Assembly (NCBI GenBank): GCA_963664015.2
Contig: CAXXLF010000001.1
Span: 640,001 to 704,000 of the forward strand
From: Candidatus Binatia bacterium
Lineage (GTDB): Bacteria; Desulfobacterota; Binatia; UBA9968; CAXXLF01
DNA length: 64,000 nt
Direction: 5' to 3'
The position numbers and the translations under genes were made by a program. This document shows positions 1,638-27,686 of this stretch, in pieces (position 1 is the first letter of the stretch; every line of letters begins with the position of its first letter). The notes beneath the pieces are model-generated. The model saw only the letters and a program-made list of their open reading frames with translations. It did not search any database and was not told where the DNA came from.

Positions 1638-1702
1638 CCCCGTGCGCATCAGCATAGTCTGATGGCAACCCACAATCACCAGGAAGAAAGAAGGATATTC
1701 CC

Positions 1703-2428
1703 ATGAAAGGACAGGCAGCAGTTGTAACCGGCGGTGCAAAGGGGGTCGGCCGTTACATCGCCCAGGGGTTGGCCAAGGAGGGAGTCCGGGTCGTTATTGC
1801 AGACACGGACTCCGAACCTCTGGAGCGGACCCGTAAAGAGTTAGCCGGCATGACTTCCGACGCCTTCAGTCTTCGTGTGGACGTCACAAAAGAGGACGAA
1901 GTCAAAGACTTGATGGCCCAGGCAGCCGATCGCTTCGGTCAAATCGATATCCTCGTCACCTGCGCGGGGATTGTTCCTCATTTTGCGTGGGGGGTGCCCA
2001 AGTGGCCCAGGATCCGAGATATGGACAAACCCTTTTGGGATCAGGTGATCCAGACCAACCTGGGAGGTGTTTTTCTCTGCACCAAACACGTCACTCCTTA
2101 CATGCAGAAACGCAAATCCGGTCATATCGTGAATATGCATGGCGGTGGCGGCGAGATCGGAGCCTGCGCTTACGTTGTTACGAAAGATGCCGTCCGCACC
2201 TTCACCCGTTTCGTAGCCGAAGAAGTGCGCGAGGACAACATCTGTGTTGTGTGCGTTTCACCTGGCGGTTCCGTTTCCTTCGATTATTCTCCGGAGGAAG
2301 CGCGCAAGAACGTGCGCGGGGTAGAGGCTCTGGGAAACCGCTTTATCCTGGCCGCCCAGGCGGACATGGAGTTATCGGGCAAGCTTGTTACCCTAACCAA
2401 CGGTCGCCTGACTGTGACCGACCATTAG
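1703..2428 (+). CDS. SDR family oxidoreductase
   Basis: TGGAKGVG Rossmann motif, YVVTK (YxxxK). Confidence 0.9.
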   Translation: MKGQAAVVTGGAKGVGRYIAQGLAKEGVRVVIADTDSEPLERTRKELAGMTSDAFSLRVDVTKEDEVKDLMAQAADRFGQIDILVTCAGIVPHFAWGVPKWPRIRDMDKPFWDQVIQTNLGGVFLCTKHVTPYMQKRKSGHIVNMHGGGGEIGACAYVVTKDAVRTFTRFVAEEVREDNICVVCVSPGGSVSFDYSPEEARKNVRGVEALGNRFILAAQADMELSGKLVTLTNGRLTVTDH

Positions 2429-2452
2429 ATGCTTCTTGAAAGGGAGGAAGCG

Positions 2453-3184
2453 ATGCAAGGCCAAGTAACAATAGTCACCGGCGGAGCCAAAGGTATCGGC
2501 CGCTATATTGCCCATGGATTCGCTAGAGAAGGTGCTAAGGTGGCCATTGCTGATATTGACACCGAGCCATTGGAACGGACTCGCAAGGAATTGGAAGGTA
2601 TGACCTCGAAGGTGCTAAGTGGCAAGGTCAATGTCAGGAATGAGGACGAGGTTCGAACATTTTTCGGTCAAGTAGCGAACCAACTGGGGCAGATCGATGT
2701 CCTGGTCAACTGTGCGGGATTGGTTCCTCACTTTAATTGGGGAGTACAGAAGTGGGCGGCCATTCGAGACATGGACAAGAGTTTTTGGGACAGTGTCATC
2801 GAGACAAACCTGGGAGGCACCTTCCACTGCACTAAACACGTTATTCCCTTCATGGAACAACGGAGGTCCGGCCATATTGTTAACCTTTTCGGCGGTGGAC
2901 GGGACATCGGGGCGTGTGCTTACGTTGTCTCAAAGGAGGCGATCCGCACATTTACCCGTATGGTCGCCGATGAAGTACGGGAGTCGAACATCTGCGTCGT
3001 CGCCACCGCCCCGGAGGGCGCAGTTGCCACGGAGGATGCCCCAGAGGAAGCTCGCAAGCGACTGCCAGGTCCCGAATCGCTGGGCAACCGCTTCATCTTG
3101 GCTGCCCAAGCGGGCATGGAGTTTTCAGGAAAACTGCTCACGTCTAAGGATGGCCGGCTGGCCGTGCGGACTCCCGGATCCTAG
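2453..3184 (+). CDS. SDR family oxidoreductase (tandem paralog)
   Basis: TGGAKGIG, NCAG, YVVSK; GGAGG RBS before ATG 2453. Confidence 0.9.
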   Translation: MQGQVTIVTGGAKGIGRYIAHGFAREGAKVAIADIDTEPLERTRKELEGMTSKVLSGKVNVRNEDEVRTFFGQVANQLGQIDVLVNCAGLVPHFNWGVQKWAAIRDMDKSFWDSVIETNLGGTFHCTKHVIPFMEQRRSGHIVNLFGGGRDIGACAYVVSKEAIRTFTRMVADEVRESNICVVATAPEGAVATEDAPEEARKRLPGPESLGNRFILAAQAGMEFSGKLLTSKDGRLAVRTPGS

Positions 3185-3208
3185 TAACGTTAACCTCCAC
3201 TGTTCCCA

Positions 3209-4096
3209 TCAGGTCGCATTCAACTCCAAGGACTTCGCCAGATCAAGAGTACGCCGGGCTCGTTCTACAATGGGTCGGTCAATCAACTGGCCGCCAAAGG
3301 AGATGGATCCGTCGCCACGAGCTACCGCATCTTCGTAAGCTTTGATGACAGCGTTGGCATGTCGGATCTCCTCTTCCGTGGGACTAAAAACACTATTGAT
3401 CGGGTCGATCTGGGACGGATGAATCGAAGACATACCGGTAAACCCCAGTCGCCGTGACTGGCGTGCAAAGGACCACAGCCCCTCGGCGTCCTGCAGGTCC
3501 ACCCACACACCGTCAACGGCTTGCACGTGGGCCGATGCAGCGGCCACCACCATGGCCGAACGGGCGTAGAGCATATCCCTAGCCTCTCCCTCCCTAACGG
3601 TGGGAAGCCCCAACTCTCGCCCGAAGTCTTCGGCCCCAAATATCAAACCCGCAACGCGGGGGGAGCATGCTGCAATAGAGGCGGCGTTAATCAATCCTCT
3701 GGGACTCTCGATGGCAATCAGCAGTCTCACCCTGCCCCGTTCCATACCATGACGGGTCTCTTGATCCTGAATGACACTGTCCACCTTGAGCACCTCTTCA
3801 GGGGTTTCAACCTTGGGGAGAACCAGCCCATCGAGCCCCGGGAGCAGCGCCGCGCCCAAGTCGGCGTCCATACGGGCATGGCCAATGGCATTGATACGTA
3901 CGAATCGGGCAGGAGCGTTGGGGATACGCTCGCGTCCCAACGCCTCCCTGATCTGTTTTCGCGCCGTATCCTTCTCACTGGGCGCCACCCCATCTTCAAT
4001 GTCCAGCATGATCGCATCCACATTGAGTCCCAGCGCCTTATCGACCATGCGCTGCCGGTGACCCGGCACAAACATCCACGAACGATAAAGAATCAT
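3209..4096 (-). CDS. CitE-family CoA ester lyase (citramalyl-/malyl-CoA lyase-like)
   Basis: RSWMFVPG, LDIEDGV, VRIN, FGAEDF, IHPSQI motifs. Confidence 0.88.
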   Translation of the reverse strand: MILYRSWMFVPGHRQRMVDKALGLNVDAIMLDIEDGVAPSEKDTARKQIREALGRERIPNAPARFVRINAIGHARMDADLGAALLPGLDGLVLPKVETPEEVLKVDSVIQDQETRHGMERGRVRLLIAIESPRGLINAASIAACSPRVAGLIFGAEDFGRELGLPTVREGEARDMLYARSAMVVAAASAHVQAVDGVWVDLQDAEGLWSFARQSRRLGFTGMSSIHPSQIDPINSVFSPTEEEIRHANAVIKAYEDAVARGDGSISFGGQLIDRPIVERARRTLDLAKSLELNAT

Positions 4097-14158: not shown

Positions 14159-14548
14159 TTTTTTCAAATTAAAAACTTTCCTATTTCTCCGAACTTGGCG
14201 TGCTTTGCGTCTTGGCGCGAGTCATCTTTCCCCGATTAGATAATCATAGTTTCAAGTGGACAAATGCCCATTCTTAGCTGGATTGTATACCAATTACATT
14301 GGAGCGTCACTCCATTTTTTACTGGGTTGTTGCCATCTCGGCCGAACATAAAGGGTTTAAATTGCAGCTTTCCCCCGTTTGGAGTAAAATAATCTTAATT
14401 CTTTGGGAGCGTTAGCTCGACTTGGGCACCTTCGGCGGTAGGCGCGTAAGGCATCGAAAAGCAAAGTAAATATGAAGATTTGAGCCCTTCGGATGGGATG
14501 TAATAGCTCAAGCCATCCGGCAAGGATCCAACCTCCGTAGAGGAGATC

Positions 14549-14914
14549 ATGACGGCCAAGGTCCTCACCCTTTTGCCCAGCAATTCCCTCAACGACGCCA
14601 TCGCCATGATGGCAAACAACACCTTCCGACATTTCATTGTTGTGGAGCTCGACGGCCAACTTGCTGGAGTCGTTTCAGACCGTGATCTTTTACGCGCCAT
14701 GAATCACAGGCGGGACTGCGCGGACTTGAAGATCAGCGAGTTCATGACCCATGAGATAGTCACCGTCCGCAAAGAAACCGCACTTTCCGAGGCTGTGGAG
14801 CAAATCATTACGCGTCGTATCAACTGCTTACCTGTAGTCGACGACAAGAACCGGGTGTGTGGCATTGTAACCTCGACGGACCTCCTCCAGGTTCTTCAAA
14901 AACACCTCGCGTAG
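14549..14914 (+). CDS. CBS domain pair protein
   Basis: GVVSDRDL, ISEFMT, CLPVVD, GIVTSTDL. Confidence 0.88.
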   Translation: MTAKVLTLLPSNSLNDAIAMMANNTFRHFIVVELDGQLAGVVSDRDLLRAMNHRRDCADLKISEFMTHEIVTVRKETALSEAVEQIITRRINCLPVVDDKNRVCGIVTSTDLLQVLQKHLA

Positions 14915-15025
14915 TCCTTCGCTATTTTTCTTCCAGCTTATCCGCTCTCATAGAAAACTTTAGGCTTAAGCGCCTCGAGGAAGGCTCTGAATAGACGCCC
15001 AGTCCGTTGAGGGTCTAAAAGTTTT

Positions 15026-15115
15026 TGGCGGAGGGGGCGAGATTCGAACTCGCGGACCACGCAAATGGTCGCCGGTTTTCAAGACCGGTGGTTTAAACCA
15101 CTCACCCACCCCTCC
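15026..15115 (-). tRNA. tRNA-Ser (anticodon TGA)
   Basis: GGAGGGG/CCCCTCC acceptor stem, CCGGTC-TTGAAA-ACCGG anticodon arm, long variable arm, GTTCGAATC, encoded CCA. Confidence 0.96.
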
Positions 15116-15576
15116 GTGCAATAGAAACAGCTACTAGAAGCAATACCTGCCTGTACCTTATTTTCATTTTTAAACGTATTTAAAATTCTCTGGAACGCAG
15201 CCAGTATATCACCGTCCTGCAAGTTGGTGTACCTACCGTGCATTCCGGGTACCTTATGGCCGCTCGCTACCAGGGCCACCTCCCACGGTAGGCCCGCTAC
15301 CGCCCAACGGGTAATGGCGGTGTGCCGGAAGTCGTGCCAGCGGAAGTCCTCAACCTCCGCAACAGCCAAGGCGTTCTCAAAAGCGTACCTTAAGGCGTTG
15401 CTGCTAAGGGGCAACCCCTCTTTGGTAAACACCCGGTTGACTAAATTGGGAATCCTTCGCTGCTCCGCCCTTAGCTCGTCTAATACTGCCGCCAGAGGGG
15501 GCGCTACGGCTACCGTTTGCTTGGCGCTGGTCTTACTACGACCACCATTTACCTTATGGTAATAAAGCCGCTGCAA
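15079..15576 (-). pseudogene. Tyrosine recombinase/integrase, C-terminal remnant
   Basis: FRWHDFRHT (HxxR), SGH and RY catalytic residues present; N-terminal domains absent. Confidence 0.88.
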
Positions 15577-15798
15577 TTAGTTTTTTGCGAAGCCTCTAAT
15601 TATAAGTCAACCTAGAGCCAGAAAGAGATTTTATGCAACGCAAAAAGGCCGCACAACAGTCTTTATCGCAGAAACCCAAATTGGCGCAAATGTGAATAGG
15701 GATATCGACCAAACCAGTAATAGCCGGTGAATCTAGGAGCTGGTGGTGTGCTCCTAAATCCGCTTCAATAAATGATGTTATAGTGCTGCATACCTTAC

Positions 15799-16923
15799 TT
15801 AATATCCGCCGAGCTCTTTCAGTAGCTTGCGGTGGTACTGTTGTGCCGCGAGACGCTCAGTAGTCTTCTTCCAGTCGTACCAGTTATTGCCCTTGGGGTC
15901 GATCCGGTCGTCTGGGCTCACGTCGTCCTTGGGGATGTCTGTTCTGAGGGAGTTGTCGCCGGTGATCCTCTGGTATAGTATCTGGCCTTCCCGGCTCAGG
16001 AACCAGTTACCGAAGTACCTTGCCGCATTGGGGTGAGGGGCCTTTGTCAAAGCCTGAAAACCCCGGCCTCCCATACCCACCTGCACACCCTCTGGGAAGG
16101 TCTTTTCCAGGGCCCTCACGGGTAGGCCGTCTCGCCTGGCAGCTCTCACCGCCCTTTGGAATCCGTAAATGCCAACGAGGAACCGCCCTTGAGCCAGCCA
16201 CTCTGCACCTGTGCGAGCGTCCGGCGCAATGACAATCTTTTGCGTGCTCCACATCTTCCGGACCCACTCCTTACCCACCATTTCGACAAGAAAACCCGCC
16301 GGACCGGTCGTGCCTGATATTCGGGGGTCTCTCGCCAGGATCTTGCCCTTCCACTTGGGATTCAGCAGGTCCTGAAAGGATTTGAAATCGTCGGGGTTCA
16401 CCCGCTTGGTGTTGTACCAGACCTGAGGGTCCGGGTCCGCCCCGTAGGCCCACTGCCGCTCTTGCTCGGGGTCGGCATACGGGAAACCATTTCCAAACCA
16501 AACACCGGGGTCCCCTACCACCTCCGGGTGGAACAGGTAATCCGGCTGCAGCTTCTCGACGGCACCGTGGGGAATGAGCAGCGTGTAGACCGACGAGGGA
16601 CCGCTCAGCCACAGGTCTGTTGTGTACCTGCCCGCTCCGCGTTCCACGAGGAGCTTCGGGATCAGTTTTCGAGAGCTACCTGTGATGATCTCCAGCTTTA
16701 TTCCAAGGATTTTCTCAAACTCTGCTCGGTGCAGGCGAAAGGCCCGCGCCTCGGACGGGCCGATCTTAAACACCACCCGGCCTTCCTTCTGCGCCGCAGC
16801 CTTCAGAGCCGCCCACTTTTCCGTGAAATTGGTCGCCTGCGCTGCTGCAGGCTGGGGAGTAGCATAAGCCACCATGAGCAACGCCGCCGTCAATACTCCA
16901 GCTAAGACAAATCTTTTGAACAT
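15799..16923 (-). CDS. Extracellular solute-binding protein (ABC type)
   Basis: Signal peptide, DLLNPKWKGKI, KAPHPNAA...WFLSREGQ. Confidence 0.85.
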   Translation of the reverse strand: MFKRFVLAGVLTAALLMVAYATPQPAAAQATNFTEKWAALKAAAQKEGRVVFKIGPSEARAFRLHRAEFEKILGIKLEIITGSSRKLIPKLLVERGAGRYTTDLWLSGPSSVYTLLIPHGAVEKLQPDYLFHPEVVGDPGVWFGNGFPYADPEQERQWAYGADPDPQVWYNTKRVNPDDFKSFQDLLNPKWKGKILARDPRISGTTGPAGFLVEMVGKEWVRKMWSTQKIVIAPDARTGAEWLAQGRFLVGIYGFQRAVRAARRDGLPVRALEKTFPEGVQVGMGGRGFQALTKAPHPNAARYFGNWFLSREGQILYQRITGDNSLRTDIPKDDVSPDDRIDPKGNNWYDWKKTTERLAAQQYHRKLLKELGGY

Positions 16924-17041
16924 CAGTACAACCTCCTGATCGTTTTTGGTTTACCCATTCGCATCTGCTCGGTCCCTGGGAGTTAGTCCACACCAGTTAC
17001 TCTACGTCTTGCCTGGTCGAGTCTTCCTGAAATCGGGGAGG

Positions 17042-17103
17042 ACTCTAGTACACCTTGTTGGTCGGTGTCAACCCTCATCCGGTTAAGACGGTTTGGTCTT
17101 AAC
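17042..17103 (-). promoter_or_regulatory. Sigma70-like promoter plus palindromic operator for the solute-binding protein gene
   Basis: TTGACA-N18-TAGAGT on - strand; GTTAAGAC-N6-GTCTTAAC at 17082-17103. Confidence 0.5.
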
Positions 17104-17628
17104 AACGCTTTTTGGATCGGGGTCAGTGAGTAGTGAGTAGGGTCACCAGGAGGGTCAGGTCTATGGATTGTTGTTTTTCCGAACGACAAGCTTACCACAA
17201 TCAAACATTGAAATCGGGATGGGCCTCAGCACGACCCTTTTTCCTTTTTCTAAGGTCCGACCAGAGGCCAACTCGTGACCGGTTTGCATGCATGGGCTGG
17301 ACATCTAACCCCAACTGAGTTAATAATCGCCGCATCTGGTGTTGCGGATTCCGTTCCGCGCGCCCCGTAGGGACACCCCATGCACCTCGGGGCCGGACAC
17401 TCAACCTAAAATAGTTAGGGAGGCCTTAATTGTCATTTGCCCAGAAATAGGCTGCGGGTTGATATAGGGAGATAGGCCACCGAACCCGGCAGTGTTTGTC
17501 GGCCAGAAAGATCTTGACAAGTTAAGGTAATGGATGGACATTGCGACCGATTCATGTTTGATAAGTAGAGCCGTTCTCGGAGATAAACCGACCGGCATTT
17601 GTCGCCGCCTAAAGCGGCTCACTTAATA

Positions 17629-18348
17629 GTTAGATTAAACTTCCCATGTTATCGGGAGTATCGTTAGGGTTGCTTTTGATAATTTCCACATTATGAATTG
17701 TTTCTATTCAATCTTAAACATACGTCTCCAATTTAGTGGGACGTTCCAATTATTTCTAGAGAGGTAAATACCATGCTTTATGAACTGACGGTTATACAGT
17801 TTAGTAAAATGCTTAAAAACTTAAGTGCCATACTTGAAAAAGGAGAAATCTTCGCGGAAACAAAAAAGATTGATGTCAACATTCTGCTTAATTCACGTTT
17901 AGCAGTAGATCAATTTAATTTGACCCGCCAAATACAAATTGCGTGTGACACCGCCAAGTTGGGCGTTGCACGTTTGGCAGGCAAAGAAGATACAGCCCCA
18001 AAACACGAAAATGGTGAAGCTACTATTCCTGAGCTACAAGAGCGTATCCACTCTGTATTGGATTATTTGTCTGGCTTTACCCGCGAAGACTTTGCGATAG
18101 CTGAGATACAAAAAATCACTCAACCACGTTGGGAAGGAAAGTATCTGACTGGCCTAGAGTTTGCCATTGAGGATGCTATTCCCAATATATGCTTCCACGT
18201 TACTACCGCTTACTCAATTTTGCGTCACAACGGCGTAGAAATTGGTAAAAAAGATTACTTAGGTACCATGCCTTACAAGTCTTAATTTTACTGATTTTTA
18301 ATCTAACAAAGCATTGCACCGGACAAGCCGGTGAACGCGGCATTACAA
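17629..18348 (+). mobile_element. Integron-type gene cassette with degenerate attC
   Basis: Begins with GTTAGAT (17629); exact complement ATCTAAC (18301) just after the stop opens a CACCGG...CCGGTG hairpin; R' box degenerate. Confidence 0.7.
17773..18285 (+). CDS. DUF1993 family protein
   Basis: LLNSRLAVDQFNLTRQIQIACD, PN..FHVTTAYSILRHNGVEIGKKDYLG; low GC. Confidence 0.9.
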   Translation: MLYELTVIQFSKMLKNLSAILEKGEIFAETKKIDVNILLNSRLAVDQFNLTRQIQIACDTAKLGVARLAGKEDTAPKHENGEATIPELQERIHSVLDYLSGFTREDFAIAEIQKITQPRWEGKYLTGLEFAIEDAIPNICFHVTTAYSILRHNGVEIGKKDYLGTMPYKS

Positions 18349-18363
18349 TCCCCACCAATTAAC

Positions 18364-18473
18364 ACCCCAGAACGCAATTAAACGACGCTTTAATTGAGTC
18401 TTATCAGGTCCCTTGACACAGCCCACCACCAGCGATAAAGGTCCTGGTATGGCAAGCAATAAACCCAAACCCC
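18364..18473 (+). repeat. ~110 bp inverted repeat, left copy (partner 22291-22399)
   Basis: Contains site 1, TTGACA and ATGGCA...CCAAA; aligns with the reverse complement of 22291-22399. Confidence 0.85.
18372..18399. repeat. Palindromic 11-6-11 site 1
   Basis: ACGCAATTAAA-CGACGC-TTTAATTGAGT. Confidence 0.85.
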
Positions 18474-18683
18474 GAGGATAATCCTTCAGCCTGGATCACT
18501 AGAGATACGTGGATTTGATACGTCGGCACTGTCCAGCGAGGACTGTTTGCAAAGGATCAAATGGCTTGCCGACAAGATAGCCGAGTCTCAGCGTTTTGGA
18601 AGGCCAGCCGCGAGAAAGCCTGCCCTAATGGTTGCCCTTCTCTGCTGGTACGCATTTTCAGCTTCCATACAGGGGAGTAAGTT

Positions 18684-19124
18684 ATGGTAAATCGTATAGT
18701 TTATGGAGCCTTAGCGGGTTTTATTATATGCGCGATATCATCGTGCACAACTTACACCAAGAACGGGTATTTTGGTGGTTTCGATGAAACCCGCCTTGGA
18801 AAAGATATCTGGAGAGTAGATGCTCGGGGGAATAAGTATGCAAGTAGTGCCTTGATCGCGAATATGGTCATGTTGCGAAGTGCGGATCTTGCGACTCAAA
18901 ATGGGTTTAGTTATTTTGCATTCGCATCTGGGTCAACGGCTTCTAAGACGAGCCTTCATCATTTCGGGAAGCGTTTAACTTTCTATTCAAAACCGGAAGC
19001 AGAAAATACTGTTATTATGTTCAAGCGAAAACCCGCCGATTTTAAAGGCCTGATATACGAAGCGTCTTTTATTTGCGAAAGTCTCGGAACAAAATTGGGA
19101 GCTACGTGCGGCGAAATAAAATAG
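18684..19124 (+). CDS. Putative lipoprotein (CC0125/CC1285-like)
   Basis: Lipobox ISSC, GGFDETRLGKD.WRV..RGN, LRSADLA..NGFSYF. Confidence 0.7.
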   Translation: MVNRIVYGALAGFIICAISSCTTYTKNGYFGGFDETRLGKDIWRVDARGNKYASSALIANMVMLRSADLATQNGFSYFAFASGSTASKTSLHHFGKRLTFYSKPEAENTVIMFKRKPADFKGLIYEASFICESLGTKLGATCGEIK

Positions 19125-19152
19125 AAATAAATATCTCTGGCGCTATTCCACC

Positions 19153-19640
19153 TCACCCTGTGTATTCATTACGGACGCACTTACGGGCAAGGTCTTGTGC
19201 TTTTTCAAGTTGGGATGGGGTCATTCTCTTCGCAACCAAATCTCTCAACTCCCCCCCCCTTCATTTCCATTAGACGCAGCGATATTCCCCCACATATGGG
19301 CATAGACATAGTCCTGTAGAACACCTAGTCCCTTGCGGTACATCAGACCCAGATTGGACTGGGCCTTCGCATACCCCTGTTCGGCAGCAAGTTTATACCA
19401 CTTCACCGCAGTCTTATAGTCCTGGAGAACGCCTAGTCCCTTGTCGTACATCAAACCCAGATTGGACTGGGCAGAGGCATACCCCTGTTCGGCAAGGGGT
19501 TTCCATTCACGCAGAGCAGTTGCGTAGTCACCTTTGGCGAGAGCAGAAAGTCCCTTTTGGTAATCAGCACTCCAACTTACCCCTGTACTTCCAAGAAGCA
19601 CGACAATGGTCAGGCAGATGGTGGCGGTCAGGCGTTTCAT
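19153..19640 (-). pseudogene. Sel1-repeat protein, frameshifted at a G9 tract
   Basis: Two AQSNLGLMY..GLGV.QDY repeats; C-terminus LRDLVAKRMTPSQLEKAQDLAR lies in another frame after poly-G 19251-19259. Confidence 0.8.
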
Positions 19641-19911
19641 AGGAAACAGACTTACATAAAATGGGGGATTTGGGTAGTCAGGATGGAATTCTACTCAACA
19701 TCCTTATATATTTCTTGCGGACGCACTCACGGGCAAGTTTTATCGCTTTCCAGCAGGATGTCAAGTTGGTACCTTCTCTTGGGATTAGTGGTAACCTGTT
19801 GTTGAACCCATACACCCCTGCCTCATCAGTAGGGGGGTTCATTTATCCAGTATCGTTTAATTGGCGCATATGGTATATCGATTTCACCAATGAGACGAAT
19901 AAGGAGATAAT

Positions 19912-20301
19912 ATGAGAAATCTCACACTGGCAACACTTGCTGTTCTTGTACTCACAACTGGATGCAGTAGTATGGGACCAAATCAACAGGTGGGTTATGC
20001 AACTGGTGCTGTTGTAGGTGGACTACTAGGAAACACTATAGGTAAGGGTGATGGACGAACTGCATCTACAGCAATCGGGGCAGTCCTTGGTACGGTGGTG
20101 GGTGGTGAAGTTGGGAAATCTATGGACACCCAACGTTCCACTCATAGCACAACTGCCTCCGTTCACTCACCGTATGATGTCTGTTCTCGTTATTCTAACG
20201 AAGGTGCCAAATCCTCTTGCAAGAAAGGTGTTTCAGACAAGTTGAGAGAGGAGCAACAGAGAATGGAGAGAAATGCATATGACAGAGGTTATGGACGATA
20301 G
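19912..20301 (+). CDS. Glycine-zipper 2TM lipoprotein
   Basis: TTGC lipobox, GAVVGGLLGNTIGKGDG...GAVLGTVVGGEVG; AAGGAG RBS. Confidence 0.85.
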   Translation: MRNLTLATLAVLVLTTGCSSMGPNQQVGYATGAVVGGLLGNTIGKGDGRTASTAIGAVLGTVVGGEVGKSMDTQRSTHSTTASVHSPYDVCSRYSNEGAKSSCKKGVSDKLREEQQRMERNAYDRGYGR

Positions 20302-20307
20302 AAGACC

Positions 20308-20466
20308 GTGGAAGGACTATTAGTCTTACTCTTCATTGGATGGTTGGTGTGGGAACTCCTGTCATCTCCCATCACATCTCTTGCCCCCATCGGGAAGGGA
20401 CTAGGATTATTGATTTTAGGAATGGGTGCAGTGGTGGGTATGGTGGTACTGGTGTTGACCACATAA
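20308..20466 (+). CDS. Small two-TM membrane protein (52 aa)
   Basis: Manual translation MEGLLVLLFIGWLVWELL...GLGLLILGMGAVVGMVVLVLTT, directly after the lipoprotein gene. Confidence 0.5.
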   Translation: MEGLLVLLFIGWLVWELLSSPITSLAPIGKGLGLLILGMGAVVGMVVLVLTT

Positions 20467-21044
20467 GCACCCCCCCATAAATCTCAACATCCTTTGTTCA
20501 TTTAACCAGTAGATGTACCTTAATCGTCTAGTTGGTCAACACCAGCTCCTACAGCACATTTCCGTATAGGAGGCACCCTGCCGATCAAATCTACCCCTGG
20601 TTCATCATTACCCTGAACACTCTGGCAGTCTCAGCCAACATGGCCTTGGGAAGGTGCTCCTCGTAGAGGCATCTTCTCATGGCAAAATCTGGCGAACAGG
20701 TTTCCGAACAGAAGTGACCCTGAATGAGACCTGGGCGGGTTGGATGGTTACGGGGTAGGCTAGTTGTCCTATGAACTCAGACGCCAGCATCCTAGCCTCA
20801 GTGCCTTAGGTTAAAGGGGTTGTTGCCTGCCTGGATCGTCCCTCACGAGCTGAGACCTCAGCCCTTGAGGCCCTCAGCAGGAATCTCATCACCTTCGATG
20901 GTATACCGAATACGTGGTCATGTGGAGGCCGAAACGCCTCTTCTGGTCTCACCACGACGGTGCAGAAAGGCGAAGACTCGATGTTCACCGCCAGATGCCA
21001 GCCGAGTAGTGGTGAGCAGTGGGATGGAGCATCCTGTTGGGTGG

Positions 21045-21439
21045 CTAATCAAGATACTTAATGACTGCGAATGTGGTAAAATTAGTACGGGCTGCCATAG
21101 AAATGGAGCCACTGGTGAGGAACCCATCTATCTGTGACTGATTGCTAAGTAGGATGACAGCATCACCACCCACTTCACGAGCCTTTTTCACAATATCGCT
21201 TCGGAACTGTGACATTGCAATCCATCCGGAGCGGCGCGCATCATCAATGATGCCGAGAATCTTGTAGCTCCGAGGAGGCTCGCCGTTAGCCCAAAACTCC
21301 ATTCCGTCAACCACCTCCTTGGTACCGCCCGTACCCTCGTAAAGGTTTTTTTAGCCTCCCAACGCCTGTACTCCGTTGTGGCACAGCCTCCAACGAGTGA
21401 CAGCACGAGGACTGAAAGGAACACGAGTATTGTTTTCAT
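21045..21439 (-). pseudogene. Putative lipoprotein, frameshifted at an A7 tract
   Basis: MKTILVFLSVLVLSLVGGC signal continues as NLYEGTGGTKEVVDGMEFW...AREVGGDAVIL after 21346-21352. Confidence 0.7.
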
Positions 21440-21985
21440 TCTTCCCCCTCTTATGGCCAACAGGTACCTCGGACGGGCCTATGTCCCGGCCTCTGGGCTT
21501 CTTTCCCTCTAGCAAGACGGAGGTTATCAAGAGCCGTGCTGCGAAGTCAATCCCAAGTGGTTGGATGATCAAGGACAACGTGGAATCTTCTCATTCTGGC
21601 TAAGTGGACCGCTCGTATGGGTCCCACAATCCAGTGCGCAATAGCCCACACCCCATACGTCTAATGACATGAGTCCTCCCATCTAAAGGAAGGTACAGTT
21701 ATAGACGTTCAGAAGCTAGGAGTTAAGACCACAGCGACCGCTAATGTTTCGAATGACTAGGGGCCTACCCAGCCGCTGACGCCCCGTGGACCAGTTCCAA
21801 CATGAAGGATGGCCTAGGCCATATCTGATGGCCTCCACCTCCCATGGTGAAGGAGCCGTTTCATAGTGTGAAAGAAGGGACCCTACTTCGGTCATGGTAC
21901 AGGGAGGCTTGAATGAGAGGAAGTGTGACTCATAAATCGTTCATGCCCTTGGGGGGGTGTGCCCATGTGACTCCCCTGCCCTCCC

Positions 21986-22141
21986 GTGTTAACACCCCGT
22001 AAACATTTCCAGTGGGTAATGGGGCACTATGGCCTGGGTTGTGCAGAATGTGAAGAATCGAGAAACCCCAAAAACAACGGTGGGCTACAACAACCCTACC
22101 GTCTTCTCAGGTCCTTTTGCCAAACAACACATTAGGATTTC
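21986..22141. repeat. 156 bp island-end (att arm-like) repeat, internal copy
   Basis: Colinear with 26129-26284: GTGTTAACAC, GCAGAATGTGAAGAATCGAGAAAC, GGGCTAC, GTCTTCT.AGGTCC, CATTAGG. Confidence 0.8.
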
Positions 22142-22315
22142 TCGTGAAAGGTACTGTTGGGCTTGGGCATACTTGCCCTCACGAGCAGCTTTGTAAAAAA
22201 GCTGGATGATGGCTTCCGGACTATCTTGGGCTGCGGCCGAATGGCTGGAGACAACGCAGCTGGTGAGAACAAAAGATAGCACAAGCATTAGGGGTTTTGG
22301 TTGACTGCCTGCCAT
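22142..22315 (-). pseudogene. Secreted protein (DUF4878-like N-terminus) truncated by the att-arm copy
   Basis: Signal peptide plus SPEAIIQLFYKAAREGKYAQAQQYLS, then reads into the repeat and stops. Confidence 0.55.
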
Positions 22316-22399
22316 AGCGGCCTTTTATCGCTGGTGTTGGGCAGTGTCAAGGGGCCTCATAAGACTCAATTAAAGCGTCGTTTAATTGCGTTCTGGGGT
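22291..22399 (-). repeat. ~110 bp inverted repeat, right copy, containing palindromic site 2 (22364-22391)
   Basis: ACTCAATTAAA-GCGTCG-TTTAATTGCGT is the exact reverse complement of site 1. Confidence 0.85.
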
Positions 22400-22639
22400 C
22401 AAATGCCCTAGAAACACCAATAACTACGCCCAGATAGCCATTGCCTTTCTTTTATGAAAAGGCCTACAAGCAACTGGCCAAAGTTTTACACAGCAACTGT
22501 TGACTCCCCTTTCGAGTTTTACTAGCGTTCTTCTGAAAAGATAAACACCTTGGCCTGGGCTATTTGATCCGACGATCGAGCTTCTATTTTGTGAAATCCA
22601 CTGCCAAAAAAGGCTCTCAAAAGTCGAGCCGAAAGAGCC

Positions 22640-22715
22640 GATCTCGACCTCTTCAGAAACGGCGTGCCGCCACCTATGTAGATAAGATTCTGAGAGGTGC
22701 AAAGCCCACCGACAG
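22640..22715 (+). pseudogene. Fragment of an ABC substrate-binding protein gene
   Basis: RAATYVDKILRGAKPTD, characteristic C-terminal motif of that family. Confidence 0.6.
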
Positions 22716-22776
22716 TTAGAAGAGCGCAAGACCACGGGTAAGGTCCTATTGATTCCGTAGACGAAAGGAAAACCTC

Positions 22777-22992
22777 ATGAGCGAGACGGAAGAGTTCGCA
22801 CAGTTCGATAAGATCAGTTTTGTTAAGGACTACGAGGGTGTCAGCATCCCAAGCGGCACTCGCATAACAATCAACCAAGGAACTGCAGGGTCGATAACAC
22901 AGGCGCTCGGCAATAACCTTACGATCCGCCTCGCCTCCGGTGCTCTCATATGGGTAACGAAGCGTGACAGCGCGGTACTAGCGAAGAGTTGA
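22777..22992 (+). CDS. Stand-alone SufT/PaaD N-terminal-like small domain protein
   Basis: IPSGTRITI..GT...ITQALGNNLTI...D..VLAK resembles the SufT N-terminus; AAGGA RBS. Confidence 0.55.
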   Translation: MSETEEFAQFDKISFVKDYEGVSIPSGTRITINQGTAGSITQALGNNLTIRLASGALIWVTKRDSAVLAKS

Positions 22993-23090
22993 GCTATCTA
23001 ATAAGCCTAAACTAGCCGTTTCAGGCTAGATAAGACTTCTTTTAGAAACGCGTTCTTCCAGTAATCTTAGGGTTGTAGACTGAGTATTTG

Positions 23091-23124
23091 AAGACGCAAT
23101 TAAAGCGTCGTTTAATTGCGTCTT
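23091..23124. repeat. Palindromic site 3 (perfect 14-6-14)
   Basis: AAGACGCAATTAAA-GCGTCG-TTTAATTGCGTCTT. Confidence 0.88.
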
Positions 23125-23285
23125 GAGCGGGAATTAAGGTCCCTTTGGTGTGGAACAAGGCTAGTGCAGACTTTACGGATCCTGTCAGTCGGCTTGACGT
23201 AATTGCACGTTTTCGGATATTGTCCACCCCAAAGCAGCAATTAGGGGACAGTCCAGCTCTATCCGGCAGCCGCTTGGGTCTTCGG

Positions 23286-24521
23286 ATGCGGTCTAGAATG
23301 TGGTCGTACGGAGAATTTGTGAGTCTCGGTAATCACGCTTCAAAAGTAATTTCCTATCATTTGCTTGTCTGTGCCGTTGCGACAAGTCTTTTGGGACCGG
23401 GCGCTGTCAGTTCGCGTGCGGCTGGTGACAACACTGAACAGGCGCAACCGACTGTAGGCCAAGAAACAGTGTCGGCGAAGGCATACCTGATTCCAGCTAA
23501 AGGCGAGGTCAACAGTCGGCTTGCGAGGCGTATTCGAAAGGGATTGGAGAATGCAACGGCGGCCAGAGCAGAGGTAGTCATTGTCGAGGTTGATACTTTC
23601 GGCGGTAGCCTGGAGGCAGCCGTCAAGATACGGGATGCGCTTTTGAATGCGGATTTGCGCACTATCGCTTTCGTCAATAAGCGCGCCATCTCCGCTGGTG
23701 CGCTGATATCCCTGGCAGCCCACGACATAGTCATGACTCCCGGCGCCACGATTGGGGCAGCTACCCCGATGCGATTCACTGCAGAGGGCCCAAAACCGCT
23801 AGGGGAAAAGGCGATCAGCTACTTCCGAAAAGAGATGAAGGCAACTGCGGAGAGCCGGGATCATCCCACCGCGCTAGCGGAAGCTATGGTGGATCTTGAC
23901 GTGGTCATACCCGGAGTGATAGAGAAGGGTAAGCTGCTAACGCTAACTACTCAGGAGGCGTTGGCCCTCAAGCTGGCAGCGGCCCAAAATGACGATCTCG
24001 AACAGCTCCTACAGACCTACGGGCTTGAACTGATTACAAAGGATCGATCCGCGCAACGTTGGGATGTGCGGAGCTGGTTCAAGCAATTTCGCACGTGGCA
24101 CGTTTGGCTCATATTGGGCCTCGTCTTGGCGGTGGCAGAGATCTTCGTCTCCGGATTCTTTCTCCTCTGGTTCGCAGTGGGGGCGCTCCTGGCTTCTTTG
24201 TTGGCCTGGCTGCAGGTGCCACAGGCGGTTCAGATCGGCACCTTTCTCGTCAGCTCGTTTCTCTTGCTCGTGTTTTCGCGCACGGTGTTGCGAAGTGTTC
24301 TGTTCCGAAGCCAATCAAACATCGCCACAAACATTGAGGCCTTGAAAGGCCGCAACGGGATCGTATTCAAGACCATCGGGGGGGGCCTCAAGCCCGGCTC
24401 GGTGAAAATAGGGGGTGAGATGTGGTCTGCTGTCTGTGCGGACGACATGGAAATCACTGAGGGATTCAAAATCGAAGTGCTTGAGATCGTTGGGAACAAA
24501 GTGAAAGTTAAACTACTTTAG
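23286..24521 (+). CDS. nfeD: NfeD family protein (ClpP-class protease domain, membrane segment, OB fold); start uncertain
   Basis: VDTFGG, AISAGALI, IGAATP, GKLLTLT; C-terminal GSVKIGGEMWSA. Confidence 0.85.
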   Translation: MRSRMWSYGEFVSLGNHASKVISYHLLVCAVATSLLGPGAVSSRAAGDNTEQAQPTVGQETVSAKAYLIPAKGEVNSRLARRIRKGLENATAARAEVVIVEVDTFGGSLEAAVKIRDALLNADLRTIAFVNKRAISAGALISLAAHDIVMTPGATIGAATPMRFTAEGPKPLGEKAISYFRKEMKATAESRDHPTALAEAMVDLDVVIPGVIEKGKLLTLTTQEALALKLAAAQNDDLEQLLQTYGLELITKDRSAQRWDVRSWFKQFRTWHVWLILGLVLAVAEIFVSGFFLLWFAVGALLASLLAWLQVPQAVQIGTFLVSSFLLLVFSRTVLRSVLFRSQSNIATNIEALKGRNGIVFKTIGGGLKPGSVKIGGEMWSAVCADDMEITEGFKIEVLEIVGNKVKVKLL

Positions 24522-24530
24522 GAGGGTGCT

Positions 24531-25493
24531 ATGGACATAACAAGTGGATGGATTGTCGGTATTATGATCATTGCGGGTCTGATTACGGCCGCCAAAGGCG
24601 TCATGATCGTTGAGCAAGCCTCGGTTAAGATGGTGGAACGGTTGGGAAAGTTCCACAAAATAGCCCGCAGTGGCATCAACTTCATCTGGCCGTTCTTAGA
24701 CAAGATTCGACCGTTTATGATGCAGCAGCAGTTGTTCAGCAAAGTGGACCTGCGCGAACAGGTAATGGATTTTCCGCCCAGCCCCGTAATTACCCGTGAC
24801 AACGTCACCATGGAAGTAGACGCTGTACTGTATTACCAGATCACTGATCCGGTGAAAGCGGTCTACGAGATTGTAGACCTGGGAAATGCCATCGTTCAGC
24901 TCACAGTCACCTCCTTGCGCAACGTCATGGGTGAACTGGCGTTGGATGAAACCCTAACCTCCCGGGAGACGGTGAACTCCAGGCTGCGCGATGTGCTCGA
25001 TGAGGCTACCGACAAATGGGGTGTCAAAGTAAACCGCGTCGAATTGAAAAACATCGAGCCACCCAAGGAGATTCAGGATGCCATGGCCAAACAGATGAAG
25101 GCGGAGCGCGAACGCCGCGCTGTGGTTACCGAGGCGGAAGGAACAAAAACGTCGGCCGTCTTGGAAGCGGAGGGCCAGCGTGAAGCTGCCATCGCCAGAG
25201 CCGAAGGAAAGAAACGCTCGACAATCTTGGAAGCTGAAGGAATAGCACAAGCGCGGCTAGCAATTGCCGAGGCGGAAGCAGGAGCGCTCAAACGTGTGCG
25301 TGAGGGGCTTAACGACGCAAATCCCGCGAACTACCTGATTGCCCTGAAGTACCTCGAGTCGCTAGAGAAGATTTCCGCTGGGCAGGCGACCAAGATCTTC
25401 CTGCCCTTCGAGGCGAGCGGGATTCTGAGCTCATTAGGAGGTATCCGCGAGATGCTCAGAACCGAGGAAGTGTCGCCAGCGAAGAGTGAGTAG
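24531..25493 (+). CDS. SPFH/stomatin (QmcA-like) protein
   Basis: VERLGKF, VITRDNV, QMKAERERRA; AGGAGG RBS; follows nfeD. Confidence 0.93.
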   Translation: MDITSGWIVGIMIIAGLITAAKGVMIVEQASVKMVERLGKFHKIARSGINFIWPFLDKIRPFMMQQQLFSKVDLREQVMDFPPSPVITRDNVTMEVDAVLYYQITDPVKAVYEIVDLGNAIVQLTVTSLRNVMGELALDETLTSRETVNSRLRDVLDEATDKWGVKVNRVELKNIEPPKEIQDAMAKQMKAERERRAVVTEAEGTKTSAVLEAEGQREAAIARAEGKKRSTILEAEGIAQARLAIAEAEAGALKRVREGLNDANPANYLIALKYLESLEKISAGQATKIFLPFEASGILSSLGGIREMLRTEEVSPAKSE

Positions 25494-25549
25494 CAAATTT
25501 ACCAATCGCCTCGTTCGAACTCGTTCGCCCATCAGTTTCTAAAGAATGA

Positions 25550-25668
25550 AAAAGGCGCTGGTCCTACTTCATTAGAGGAGTTGTACGAAACAGATACTCT
25601 TATCTGCTCCAGGTGCCAGGAAGAGATGCGGATTATCAGTTTTATTGGCCAGCCCGAAGTCATTATTC
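25550..25668 (+). pseudogene. IS91-family transposase C-terminal remnant
   Basis: LYETDTLICSRCQEEMRIISFIGQPEVI matches the IS91-type ..YEVDPL.C..C...MRIISFI motif. Confidence 0.65.
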
Positions 25669-25670
25669 AC

Positions 25671-25710
25671 GCCAGGACGCAATTCAGTAGCTCTTTAATT
25701 GCGTCCTGGC
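25671..25710. repeat. Palindromic site 4 (variant spacer)
   Basis: GCCAGG-ACGCAATTCAG-TAGCTC-TTTAATTGCGT-CCTGGC. Confidence 0.8.
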
Positions 25711-26128
25711 ACTCCAACGCTTCGCGAACCCAAGCCCAGAGCGGATTCCAGCCTACCTAGAATTGACATTTAATGAGTCTGGTTTGGGGCAGCTTAGATG
25801 GGCAGTAAATGATTAGCGGCCTAATAGCTTTGACTAAGCTAAAAAAAATATAGAAATTTTTGCCTTTCACCCCTAGAGAAGTAAATAGGGGGCATGTTGG
25901 CCAGATTTAAATGCCTGATTCTTGGGGGGCTCGGGGGCGACGGTGCCGGCTGGCGGTAGGCACCCTAATCCTTTTTCCGAATAACGGCCCAAGGGGATCC
26001 TAGATGCAACCCTGAAGCTCCCTGCAGCCTCCCGATTGACGGGGCTGGCACCCAAGTGCCTTGACCTGTGGGACGGCCTGGGGTTTCTTCCAATCCCGGC
26101 AATCGCGAACGCCTGTTACCCGATCCCT

Positions 26129-26284
26129 GTGTTAACACCTCGTTAACATTTTCGCCTAAAAATGGGGGTTCCTGAGTTTGCACCTGCAGAATGTGAAGAA
26201 TCGAGAAACATGAACAAAGACGGCGGGCTACCTCTAACCTACAATCTTCTTAGGTCCCTTTGCCAAGTCACGCATTAGGTTTTC
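26129..26284. repeat. 156 bp island-end (att arm-like) repeat abutting the tRNA fragment
   Basis: Direct repeat of 21986-22141. Confidence 0.8.
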
Positions 26285-26319
26285 AAGACCGGTGGGTTAA
26301 ACCACTCACCCACCCCTCC
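26278..26319 (-). other. Displaced 5' half of tRNA-Ser (att site)
   Basis: GGAGGGGTGGGTGAGTGGTTTAACCCACCGGTCTTGAAAACC, then unrelated sequence. Confidence 0.9.
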
Positions 26320-26343
26320 TGCTTATTTCAGGTAAGTACTTGA

Positions 26344-26372
26344 AGATTAACATACTGATCCCCGGCGGCCAA
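26344..26372 (-). promoter_or_regulatory. Probable original tRNA-Ser promoter
   Basis: TTGGCC-N17-TAATCT with a TG extension, upstream of the tRNA fragment. Confidence 0.45.
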
Positions 26373-26378
26373 CGAATT

Positions 26379-26690
26379 CTATTTTCGATCTCCTAGCCGA
26401 TCCTCGTCTACCTTGAGCCGACAATCCTCGACAATCTCTTTGGGGATCATCCTGAACGCAATGACGATTAACGCAGGGACGATGATGAGGTCGTCTAGCT
26501 GGCCGAGGACCGGTATGAAATCGGGGATGAGGTCAAAGGGCAGTAATGCATACCCTACGGCAAGGCCGAGAAGCCATTTTGCCAACTTCGGTGTGCGGTG
26601 ATCTTTGAGGATTACTTGGTAGATCCTGATCTCTTTCTTTAGACTTTCTCCGAAGAACCGTAATTGATTAATACTTTTACACCAGCCCAT
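26379..26690 (-). CDS. YkvA/DUF1232 family protein
   Basis: RTPKLAK...YALLPFDLIPDFIPVLGQLDD. Confidence 0.9.
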   Translation of the reverse strand: MGWCKSINQLRFFGESLKKEIRIYQVILKDHRTPKLAKWLLGLAVGYALLPFDLIPDFIPVLGQLDDLIIVPALIVIAFRMIPKEIVEDCRLKVDEDRLGDRK

Positions 26691-26793
26691 GGGTTATTGA
26701 TGTACTCCAACACCGATGCTAACAAGCGTCTTCCGCCCCACTGATAATCCGTTGGCGGTTCAACTCCTGTCTATCCGATATGATTGAGAAGGT

Positions 26794-27686
26794 CTATTGA
26801 ACGCGGATGAGTTTCTTGGGGGAGGTCTTACCTTTGATCGCTCTCGCCCTACGGACAAGCGACTCGGTTTCTTCATATTTCCCCTGAAGGGAATAGAGCA
26901 CCGCAATGCTACTCAGGCTCCCGCCCACGGCGGGATGCTTGGAGCCATATGCATCCTCTCTGATCTTGAGTGCCTGCTCGAGCAGGGGGAGGGCTTGGTC
27001 GTATTTATGTTGAACAAAGTAGACCCTTGCCAGGCTGTTGAGACAGGTGGCAACATATGGGTGTTCCGCGCCCATGTTTTTCCTTGCGATCCCCAAGACC
27101 CTCTTGTAAACGGGCTCGGCCTCGGCATACTTCCTCTGGGTTGAATAGAGGTTGACCAGGTTGTTGAGGCTGACACTCACGTGGGGATGCGAGGAGCCGA
27201 GCGACGTTTCCACAATGGCAAGGGCCCTCTTATAGAACGGCTCGGCCACCTCATATTTAGCCTGGGTCTTATAGAGCAGGCCCAGACTGTTCAGGTTCTC
27301 GCCCACAGCGGGATGGTCCGGCCCGAGTGCCTTCTCACGGATCACCAGGGCGCGTTTGAACAGGGACTCGGCTTCATTGTATTCGCCCTGCACTCGGTAC
27401 ACATCGCCTAAATCATTCAGGTTTGTAGCTACGTCCGGGTGATAAGTCCCAAGGTTTCTTTCGCTGAGCGCCAGGGAACGATTGAAAAGCGGCAGGGCCT
27501 TTCCATATTCACCCTTGATGTAAAAGGATCTGGCCTCGGAATTGAGAATTTTGGCCTCATACAACCCGGAGACCGAAGGCCGGTCGAGCTCGCCGGGAGC
27601 CGCATTCGCCGAAGGACTGCCTGCGAGCGCAATGGCGATACAGAGATATCCCAGGATTAAAATTTTTGTATAATTAACTTTGCCAC
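26794..27686 (-). CDS. Secreted tetratricopeptide repeat protein (kinesin-light-chain-type TPR); start unclear, possible frameshift at A5 27663-27667
   Basis: Repeated LG..HP.VA..LN.L...Y..Q.KY..AEPLY.RAL; a signal-like segment lies upstream of TTG 27564. Confidence 0.8.

Follow-up and report, generated by a model that had tools for sequence, protein, structure and literature searches.

Integrons are the main well-described store of single-gene cassettes, and dif modules form a smaller plasmid analogue. The recombination site of an integron cassette, attC, comprises two simple sites with 7-nt core motifs and measures about 57–141 bp in total. For the pdif modules of Acinetobacter plasmids, PMC10132070 describes an insertion sequence that lies 5 bp from the site in constant orientation. 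For the repetitive extragenic palindromes (REPs), PMC3733652 describes units of 20–40 bp that carry an unpaired GTAG or CGTC tag at one end, many of which lie close together in opposite orientation, and that occur after genes genome-wide. Here, we describe short palindromic sites in a 64,000-nt stretch of a Candidatus Binatia genome (the whole of which is called the window), where an earlier note had singled out four sites, each made of two 11-bp arms around a 6-bp spacer, and had proposed an undescribed recombination-cassette system. Our analysis of the window, of related genomes and of metagenomes leads us to favour, tentatively and at somewhat less than an even chance, the view that these palindromes are the core recombination sites of an undescribed site-specific cassette system with a trans-acting recombinase, in one Candidatus Binatia family.

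A scan of the window with the earlier note's pattern, allowing up to three mismatches, returned exactly four matches, compared with a mean of 0.00 and a maximum of 0 in 100 dinucleotide-preserving shuffles, so the count of four without a further full copy is correct. Site 1 (18372-18399) lies on the (-) strand, and site 2 (22364-22391), site 3 (23094-23121) and site 4 (25677-25704) lie on the (+) strand. All show the 11-6-11 core geometry, and site 3 matches the pattern perfectly (28/28). As described before, the spacer is GCGTCG at sites 2 and 3, its complement at site 1, which is thus inverted relative to sites 2–4, and TAGCTC at site 4. The outer extensions are indeed self-complementary at site 3 (AAG/CTT) and site 4 (GCCAGG/CCTGGC), with mixed flanks at sites 1 and 2. 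Folded as single-stranded DNA, site 3 forms a hairpin of -13 kcal/mol (z -5.5) and site 4 one of -17.3 kcal/mol (z -8.3); the window sequence shows no T-run 3′ of the hairpin. Sites 1 and 2 lie within an 81-nt inverted repeat (18364-18444 and 22319-22399, 93% complementary), one end of which is formed by site 1; this repeat is absent from the earlier note, and the two sites are the only inverted site pair seen. The view of the sites as junctions between unrelated modules is supported. Two other views need revision: the sites are not private to one island, being a family-wide repeat with up to ~100 copies per genome, and site 4 is not a variant copy of the same type, since it is a member of another class, distinguished by an invariant spacer and a conserved downstream module of its own.

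These two classes, termed G and T, became apparent in an alignment of 111 unique G sites and 29 T sites. The G class, with the consensus (YARG) ACKCAATTAAW GCGTCG TTTAATTGCGT (YYTG), includes sites 1–3 of the window, and the T class, ACGCAWTTMAW TAGCTC ATKAATTGCGT, includes site 4. A site thus consists of two 11-bp arms, an asymmetric 6-bp spacer and four partly complementary flank bases on each side, giving 28–36 bp. The spacer positions are each conserved in 108–111 of the 111 G sites and in 27–29 of the 29 T sites, values somewhat inflated because sites with more than one spacer mismatch had been left out beforehand; in the genome of the window, the copies excluded for an odd spacer number just two. 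The left arm is more variable than the right, position 3 being G in 42 and T in 65 of the G sites, and position 11 being A in 78 and T in 32. The right arm carries no compensating change, as pair 3-26 is of the Watson-Crick type in 40/111 and pair 11-18 in 76/111. This uncompensated variation of the left arm speaks against a plain hairpin and suggests that the centre of the site is under constraint. Between the classes, the inner three arm positions differ along with the spacer, and we propose, as part of the best explanation, that the G and T spacer classes are mutually incompatible. At the three flank pairs of the outer stem, T-G or G-T occurs on the top strand in 112 cells versus 35 for A-C, and the 5′ flank, with the consensus (G)TARG and partly paired with the 3′ YYTG, is close to GTAG in part of the copies.

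The genome of the window (G000; 3.51 Mb in two contigs) was compared with four sister genomes of the same family (G001–G004), of which G002 and G004 are species of one genus, while G000 belongs to a different genus from G003 and G004; a further 56 genomes represent the order's two other families, f2 (28) and f3 (28). The forward pattern at up to three mismatches was found 14 times in G000 and 39, 3, 101 and 105 times in the sister genomes (105 in G004), compared with 0 matches for the reversed pattern as a control. When up to five arm mismatches are allowed, G000 contains 22 places, distributed over both contigs. The motif is present in all four sisters and in one of the 56 genomes of the other families (1/28 in f2, 0/28 in f3). 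An exact 22-nt core recurs in 68 stretches of species-representative genomes, nearly all of them titled Candidatus Binatia or carrying the older label Deltaproteobacteria and a few being short contigs binned elsewhere, and in at least 140 metagenome stretches; viral contigs gave 0 matches to the G core. Literature searches on Binatia integrons and on palindromic repeats in Binatota gave no account of such sites among the papers listed, a broader search of print for the motif not being possible.

Within the family, the copies are clustered at ~10 places in G000 and ~20 in G004, and the anticipated clustering in islands or arrays with different cargo between sites is what the family genomes display. 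The orientation of G and T sites is uniform in 59 of the 59 loci with two or more sites, and it is kept even where the enclosed genes run in the opposite direction, e.g., at L007:382-2849. The median distance between sites is 1149 bp (119 distances, range 111–3997). Eleven stretches fetched from G004 contain 4–12 sites each, with one to three genes between sites that encode unrelated accessory functions: ornithine cyclodeaminase, orphan ATP-binding cassette (ABC) substrate-binding proteins, glycosyltransferase, luciferase-like monooxygenase, O-methyltransferases, GFA, DJ-1, adenylate cyclases and a PspA-YqiJ-flotillin set. Metagenome contigs with sites carry the same kind of cargo. The orphan ABC substrate-binding protein (PF04392) is by far the commonest cargo (L006-L016 and metagenome loci L113-L181).

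T sites lie at the downstream ends of arrays and are followed by a ~140-nt module (M2), which was delineated from an alignment of 12 T-site downstream regions of G000 and G004 and contains a short inverted repeat and a TTGACA box. M2 also stands 3′ of the T-class site 4 of the window, at 25705-25845 (+), in keeping with the array-end type of that site. A T palindrome lies exactly 10 nt upstream of the G site in 12 of 73 G sites; as single-stranded DNA, the resulting 66-bp composite adopts a single long hairpin in which the two spacers make up a 6x6 internal loop (-19.6 kcal/mol, z -6.2). In G000, four of five strong T sites are linked to a tRNA; the 13 G004 stretches examined contain no tRNA. 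Downstream of the G sites, a TTGACW box occurs within 75 nt in 58 of 114 cases (background 2.5%) and is lacking in 49, and an outward-facing box lies upstream of 15 of the 114. Further conserved leader modules of 30–60 nt 3′ of G sites are common to unrelated cassettes (L006-L016, L113-L181), the commonest consisting of a TTGACA box, an extended -10-like box and a conserved leader. Finally, an IS1634-family element with a 597-aa transposase is inserted 8 nt after the right arm of a G site, on the same side in every case, at five G004 loci (L008:7797-9950 on contig C6, L007:4211, L012:6227, L013:3361 and L015:6259); this fixed distance implies that the site is a recognised target.

Comparison between genomes shows how arrays and cassettes are inserted. 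A 17-site array of G004 (C7:1236037-1257451, 21.4 kb) lies between two core genes, and the two flanks of the array are 82–85% identical to two G002 genes ~90 bp apart. The 0.7-kb cassette between sites 2 and 3 of the window (22392-23093, (+)) is 93–94% identical, over 22395-23090, to G004:C7:1605580-1606272, where G sites bound the copy too and the neighbours are unrelated. Likewise, the nfeD-stomatin cassette after site 3 (23122-25493, (+)) is covered by two stretches, 23093-24878 and 24638-25500, that are 94% and 92% identical to the G003 contigs C342 and C101. By comparison, the core flanks of the island are only 70–79% identical between the same genomes. In both shared cassettes, the G site marks the start of homology, with unrelated DNA upstream of it. 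This start at the site, seen between strains and between genera, agrees with the earlier note. At its right end, the 0.7-kb homology stops 3 nt before site 3 in the window, and G004 adds 66 nt and a T site before the next G site. Two duplicated modules within G000 (93% and 97% identical) also end inside a site, their second copies keeping the right arm and all or two bases of the spacer. One of them is the DUF1993 module left of site 1 (17410-18391, (+); Pfam E 2.7e-49), which recurs at C2:2237024-2238007 with 93% identity ending inside site 1; the copy there diverges after one arm, the spacer and another 3 nt.

The variation within the sites themselves is linked to their flanks. For this test, 257 unique G sites were clustered by upstream or downstream flank and compared with 1000 permutations, the pairs not being independent. 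The alleles found at positions -3, -1, 0 and 3 go with the upstream cluster (agreement 0.65–0.82, reached in 0–3 of the 1000 permutations) and not the downstream clusters, position 31 in the right flank follows the downstream cluster (3/1000), position 20 in the right arm does so marginally (45/1000), and position 11 follows neither flank. Pairs with near-identical flanks are few (17 and 6, of which 4 and 6 are informative): among those with downstream flanks more than 95% identical and unrelated upstream DNA, three of the four informative pairs have their last difference at position 11; of the six converse pairs, with near-identical upstream flanks, two first differ at that position. The flank-linked alleles therefore place the reassortment point between position 3 and about position 20, spacer included. 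The idea that the flank alleles mark recombinant hybrids thus agrees with the left flank and arm, which follow the upstream module, and with position 31, which follows the downstream one, with only marginal agreement at position 20. A previous run with 110 G sites at 75% flank identity had given a weak result of another kind, with both arms slightly more alike in sites that share the upstream flank; it was replaced by the clustering and permutation of the 257 sites.

For a cassette system of this kind, we infer an enzyme, a circular intermediate and exact cut positions along the following lines. A recombinase encoded in trans, most likely of the tyrosine type because of the 11-6-11 geometry, would exchange strands in the central part of the site. 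Circular cassettes of one to three genes would integrate next to a resident site, which would give rise to direct repeats, and could later be excised or swapped. Array growth would keep a single polarity, with a T site and its conserved module at the end, and many cassettes would bring their own promoter, 10 nt after the G site. With slightly more reserve, one may extend this to a marine Binatia family with integron-independent gene capture, in which hundreds of promoter-bearing cassettes in polar chromosomal arrays would be exchanged between genera via 11-6-11 sites, G inside and T at the ends, by an enzyme encoded elsewhere or on an unassembled element; this would be a second, independently evolved system beside integrons. 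The single-recombinase, module-shuffling system of the earlier note is accordingly in line with the junctions, the clustering and the hybrid flanks, but the search for its enzyme found none.

Several results weigh against this recombinase-based reading, the most serious of which concern the enzyme. No co-occurring recombinase tied to the sites was found. Tyrosine recombinases are encoded by all family genomes (two Xer-type proteins and tRNA-island integrases), but no connection between any of these and the sites could be made; PF00589 gives 13 matches in G004, not one of which is adjacent to an array. In G000, the integrases within site clusters are all fragments, and the two intact tRNA-island integrases lie far from any site. 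Nor does anything link the truncated integrase of the window's tRNA island, which the earlier note had offered as one possible source of the enzyme, to the palindromes. Among 69 metagenome contigs with sites, 0 of the 150 open reading frames (ORFs) scanned (163 called) match a recombinase or transposase family, and one encodes an excisionase-type helix-turn-helix protein. Serine recombinases (PF00239) were not found in G004, G001 or G002, and occur elsewhere as one copy with an internal stop in G000 and as fragments in G003. In the five family genomes, the integron integrase is represented by interrupted or truncated relics only, none over the model cut-off. Matches to the IntI model at E <= 1e-30 are present in 14/28 f2 genomes, 2/4 sister genomes and G000; in an order-wide profile search of 61 genomes, 12 exceed the cut-off, and all over-cut-off matches listed are in f2, where the motif occurs in 1/28 genomes. 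The integron integrase was rejected as the enzyme on grounds of position and co-occurrence. Of these relics, that at G000 C2:382447-383204 (-) covers profile positions 1-212 and then 209-258 in another frame, and that at G004 C4:148772-151187 (+) is split by ~1.4 kb. No site occurs in the 32 kb around the G004 relic (L017, L018) or near that of G000.

XerC/XerD is likewise an unlikely enzyme. A scan with the generic pattern ATAA-N6-TTAT yielded a dif-like site, TGATAA-N6-TTATGT(A/C)AAC, with one copy at 0–1 mismatch in each of the five family genomes (in G000 at C1:143277-143298), a prior scan with a dif consensus having given nothing useful. This copy probably serves as the XerC/XerD site of the chromosome. 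Its arms bear no relation to ACKCAATTAAW and TTTAATTGCGT, and the pdif-like system of the earlier note is not borne out in sequence. A second dif-like repeat, CGATAAGGrGnnTTATGTCAAC, occurs at C5:579481, C5:584329, C7:612518 and C7:616441 in G004, at C142:2792 and C529:11785 in G003 and at C387:638 in G001. One of its copies lies ~80 nt downstream of an IS91-like transposase gene (G003 C529) and another lies near a match to the IS91 remnant of the window (G004 C7:612710); this repeat may be the end or target of an IS91-like element.

The sites and their surroundings provide further points against the reading. The empty G002 junction that corresponds to the 17-site array has no resident site, and the distal ends of both G000 duplicates have none either. 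The right end of the 0.7-kb cassette differs by a ~100-nt indel between genomes, and the junction at 17410/17411, from the solute-binding-protein stretch to the DUF1993 module, has no palindromic site. The linkage switch inside the site, obtained from pairs that are not independent, is equally expected from homologous recombination in a conserved stretch of 28–36 bp. In addition, the TTGACW box stands exactly 10 nt downstream in 33 of the 114 G sites, within a promoter-like module with a conserved leader, and at 21–22 nt, i.e., one helical turn further, in six more, which suits a transcription-factor site. The sites do not lie in the promoters of conserved core genes, a position that the earlier note had named as favouring an operator, but about a third of the G sites lie 10 nt from a promoter-like module, and a transcriptional role for the G sites may exist. 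The predicted excision of 22378-23107 was not seen: contigs of four public runs compared with 17400-26400 show no alternative joint at any site, although rare excision products are invisible in contigs. Sites 2 and 3 are bridged in the window arrangement by contigs of two seawater metagenomes, and the loose contig ends at 18400, 23091, 23125 and 25674 belong to other repeat copies. Confidence in the recombinase-based reading stays below an even chance because no candidate enzyme emerged, the distal ends are ragged, the empty locus lacks a site and a third of the G sites are tightly coupled to a promoter-like module.

Several of these points would also fit sites that are mosaic intergenic repeats, in which the palindromes and the promoter and leader modules form conserved stretches of 30–140 nt on the flanks of every cassette. 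After DNA uptake or transfer, such anchors would allow RecA-type homologous recombination to swap or add cassettes with no dedicated recombinase, an explanation that we consider possible but unlikely. None of the searches would then be expected to reveal a linked recombinase, several conserved modules beside the sites would be common to unrelated cassettes, as observed, crossovers in the most conserved stretch would produce the linkage switch, and the far cassette ends would be ragged. However, such anchors leave unexplained why the most invariant part is an asymmetric spacer in exactly two classes, why one orientation is kept in every multi-site locus whatever the direction of the genes, and how a 21-kb array originated at a repeat-free locus. 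Moreover, efficient homologous exchange requires a length not far short of 28 bp. The hairpin potential of the sites points in another direction, namely to REP-like hairpins at the 3′ ends of cassette mRNAs that would stabilise, terminate or insulate transcripts and would travel passively or be spread by a Y1 transposase resembling the REP-associated tyrosine transposases (RAYTs). The length and palindromic form of the sites fit the 20–40 bp of REPs given in PMC3733652, and the near-GTAG 5′ flank of some copies, the excess of T-G/G-T over A-C in the outer stem and the single long hairpin of the T-10 nt-G composite agree with it, as do the Y1_Tnp proteins of ~320–330 aa in four of the five family genomes. 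Yet 0 of the four Y1_Tnp loci (L019-L022) has a site within ~1.5 kb at up to six arm mismatches, and G000, which does have sites, shows no Y1_Tnp match over the cut-off. The copies also cluster in accessory arrays rather than between core genes, they are directly oriented throughout, whereas many REP families described in PMC3733652 are in opposite orientation, the inner stem varies without compensation, and no T-run follows the hairpin. We regard this explanation as improbable.

Very unlikely, in our view, is a role of the hairpins as origins or terminators for a rolling-circle (HUH) enzyme, which would nick the loop, initiate at one hairpin, terminate at the following one and so produce a single-stranded cassette circle with one fixed and one variable end. 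The invariant loop with less constrained stems, the uniform polarity and the several duplications that have a constant end at the site and a ragged one opposite would suit such a mechanism, and the remnant of an IS91-family (Y2 HUH) transposase abuts the T site of the window; a weak match to this remnant (17 aa, 59% identity, E ~1.7) also precedes a T site in G004 (L006:16878-16928). On the other hand, the IS91-type Y2_Tnp was found in only two of the five family genomes (G003 and G001), not in G004 or G000, the one IS91-like copy of G003 examined with a complete downstream flank has no G or T palindrome downstream of the gene, and two spacer classes would require two nick specificities. The frequent promoter boxes, with their preferred spacings of 10 and 21–22 nt and the outward-facing boxes upstream, could instead indicate an operator or activator site of a dimeric transcription factor that is copied along with the adjacent conserved promoter. 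This is the least probable of the explanations considered here, if by little: 49 of the 114 G sites have no box, the centre rather than the arms is most conserved and exists in two discrete versions, the orientation of the sites follows the array and not the gene, T sites end arrays, and cassette homology starts at the site. Geometry, two spacers, polarity, spacing, array insertion, cassette sharing and linkage switch, most of which was directly observed, are the outcome to be expected of site-specific integration and excision. No rival explains the whole set, and the site-specific cassette system with a trans-acting recombinase is therefore the reading that we tentatively retain.

The four sites of the window lie in a stretch that can reasonably be regarded as an island, bounded by a tRNA-Ser gene and a 42-nt partial copy of it. 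The tRNA-Ser(tga) gene (15026-15115, (-); ARAGORN, and 60.7 bits for the Rfam tRNA model) forms one edge of the variable DNA and is 99% identical in G002 and G004, where the adjoining variable DNA differs. The copy of its 5′ part (26278-26319, (-); direct repeat D5, 98% identical) is the probable far edge. Between the tRNA and the genes for an ACT-domain protein and seryl-tRNA synthetase (SerRS), the DNA differs in content and length in the sister genomes and is unrelated there. An Rfam search of 14500-27500 returned only the tRNA above the gathering threshold. The truncated tyrosine integrase mentioned above is a 165-aa C-terminal fragment (15079-15576, (-); PF00589 E 6e-9, profile positions 59-170 of 172) that overlaps the 5′ end of the tRNA gene. 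On the other side of the tRNA, the gap to the left core flank is ~36 kb in G004 (C7:956637-993144), with an integrase gene next to the tRNA, and less than 1 kb in G000 and G002, which makes both sides of tRNA-Ser(tga) hotspots of insertion in the family. A solute-binding-protein gene lies in a 1.6-kb stretch (15794-17411) that is 98% identical to G000 C2:902296-903912, a copy that lies near a tRNA-Thr gene and another integrase fragment.

The remaining cargo of the island forms a patchwork. The DNA left of site 1 had been taken for an integron cassette, which we could not confirm, only a hairpin after the DUF1993 gene being seen. Between the inverted sites 1 and 2, a 4-kb segment (18400-22363) contains lipoprotein, Sel1-repeat and glycine-zipper genes (Pfam, NCBIfam) and small ORFs, with promoter-like TTGACA boxes facing inward at both ends. 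The 108-nt tandem units of its Sel1-repeat gene (19245-19640, (-)) recur in many copies at G000 C2:1224-1244 kb and C2:934-935 kb, and the very high depth of this stretch in seawater metagenome contigs indicates that the repeat is widespread. A 100-nt direct repeat of 80% identity connects 22042-22141, beside the small ORF left of site 2, with 26185-26284, just before the tRNA-fragment repeat. The SufT-like gene assigned to the 0.7-kb cassette is a short ORF (22777-22992) that does match the N-terminus of SufT, but weakly, at 31.7 bits against a cut-off of 202.6. The nfeD and stomatin (Band_7) genes after site 3 (23145-24521 and 24531-25493) are borne out by Pfam matches to NfeD1b_N/NfeD and Band_7. 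The C-terminal remnant of an IS91-family (Y2) transposase (25572-25664, (+)) is present as well, residues 27-57 of the frame 25494-25712 being 52% identical to a Y2_Tnp ORF of G003 (E 3e-6); it ends 12 nt before site 4. Taken together, the system in the window looks decayed, with four sites of which one is inverted, a patchwork cargo of duplicated segments and some junctions without sites, a broken island integrase and no intact recombinase nearby.

What distinguishes the family as a whole, an uncultured and environmentally widespread lineage, is the arrangement of up to ~100 cassettes per genome by a different kind of site. If a recombinase acts on the sites, they would belong to a natural gene-capture system not described before and would supply orthogonal recombination sites that already fall into two compatibility classes, and their activity would explain how the large sets of solute-binding proteins, methyltransferases and cyclases are built up. 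If no such enzyme exists, the arrays would clearly exemplify an exchange of cassettes that depends on short conserved repeats alone.

Each of the known systems shares some features with the Binatia sites. In the lox and FRT sites, inverted arms likewise surround a short asymmetric spacer that gives polarity, and spacer variants should recombine only within their own set, as G and T would. Unlike lox and FRT, the Binatia sites have no known cognate enzyme, their inner arm positions differ with the spacer, and they occur in arrays in hundreds of natural copies. REPs and the bacterial interspersed mosaic elements (BIMEs) that contain them, together with the Neisseria intergenic mosaic elements (NIMEs), are comparable as short lineage-specific palindromes with conserved intergenic modules that follow genes and serve as targets of insertion sequences. 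The Binatia copies, in contrast, are found in accessory arrays, only in direct orientation, with an asymmetric and near-invariant centre in two classes, and not beside the four Y1 loci. Sites of dif modules alternate in orientation, whereas those of Binatia arrays are all direct. The pdif modules, which are exchanged by XerC/XerD, nevertheless have the same 11-6-11 geometry and are also site-bounded modules without a recombinase gene. They also have in common an insertion sequence that hunts the site at a distance of a few bp in constant orientation, 5 bp at pdif according to PMC10132070 and 8 nt at G sites, although the element at G sites belongs to the IS1634 family and not to IS1202. Further differences from pdif are arms unrelated to the family's dif-like site, a near-invariant spacer, and a chromosomal location in far longer arrays.

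Integron arrays, including the clusters of attC sites lacking integron integrases (CALINs), show several parallels: cassettes of ~1 kb with one to few unrelated accessory genes, imperfect palindromes that all point one way, occasional reversed genes within this uniform polarity, and cassettes common to distant hosts. The T-10 nt-G composite, in which an unpaired 6x6 internal loop separates an outer stem from an inner stem with its loop, is reminiscent of attC in its folded form. The usual junction, however, is the 28–36 bp G site alone, and the 7-nt core motif of attC is matched at 5/7 positions. Integron cassettes are mostly promoterless, whereas about half of the G sites are followed by a TTGACW box. 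No Binatia array adjoins an integron-integrase gene, such genes being relics here and intact in a neighbouring family without the sites. Although its sites neither adjoin an integron integrase nor co-occur with one across genomes, the Binatia system works most like an integron cassette array.

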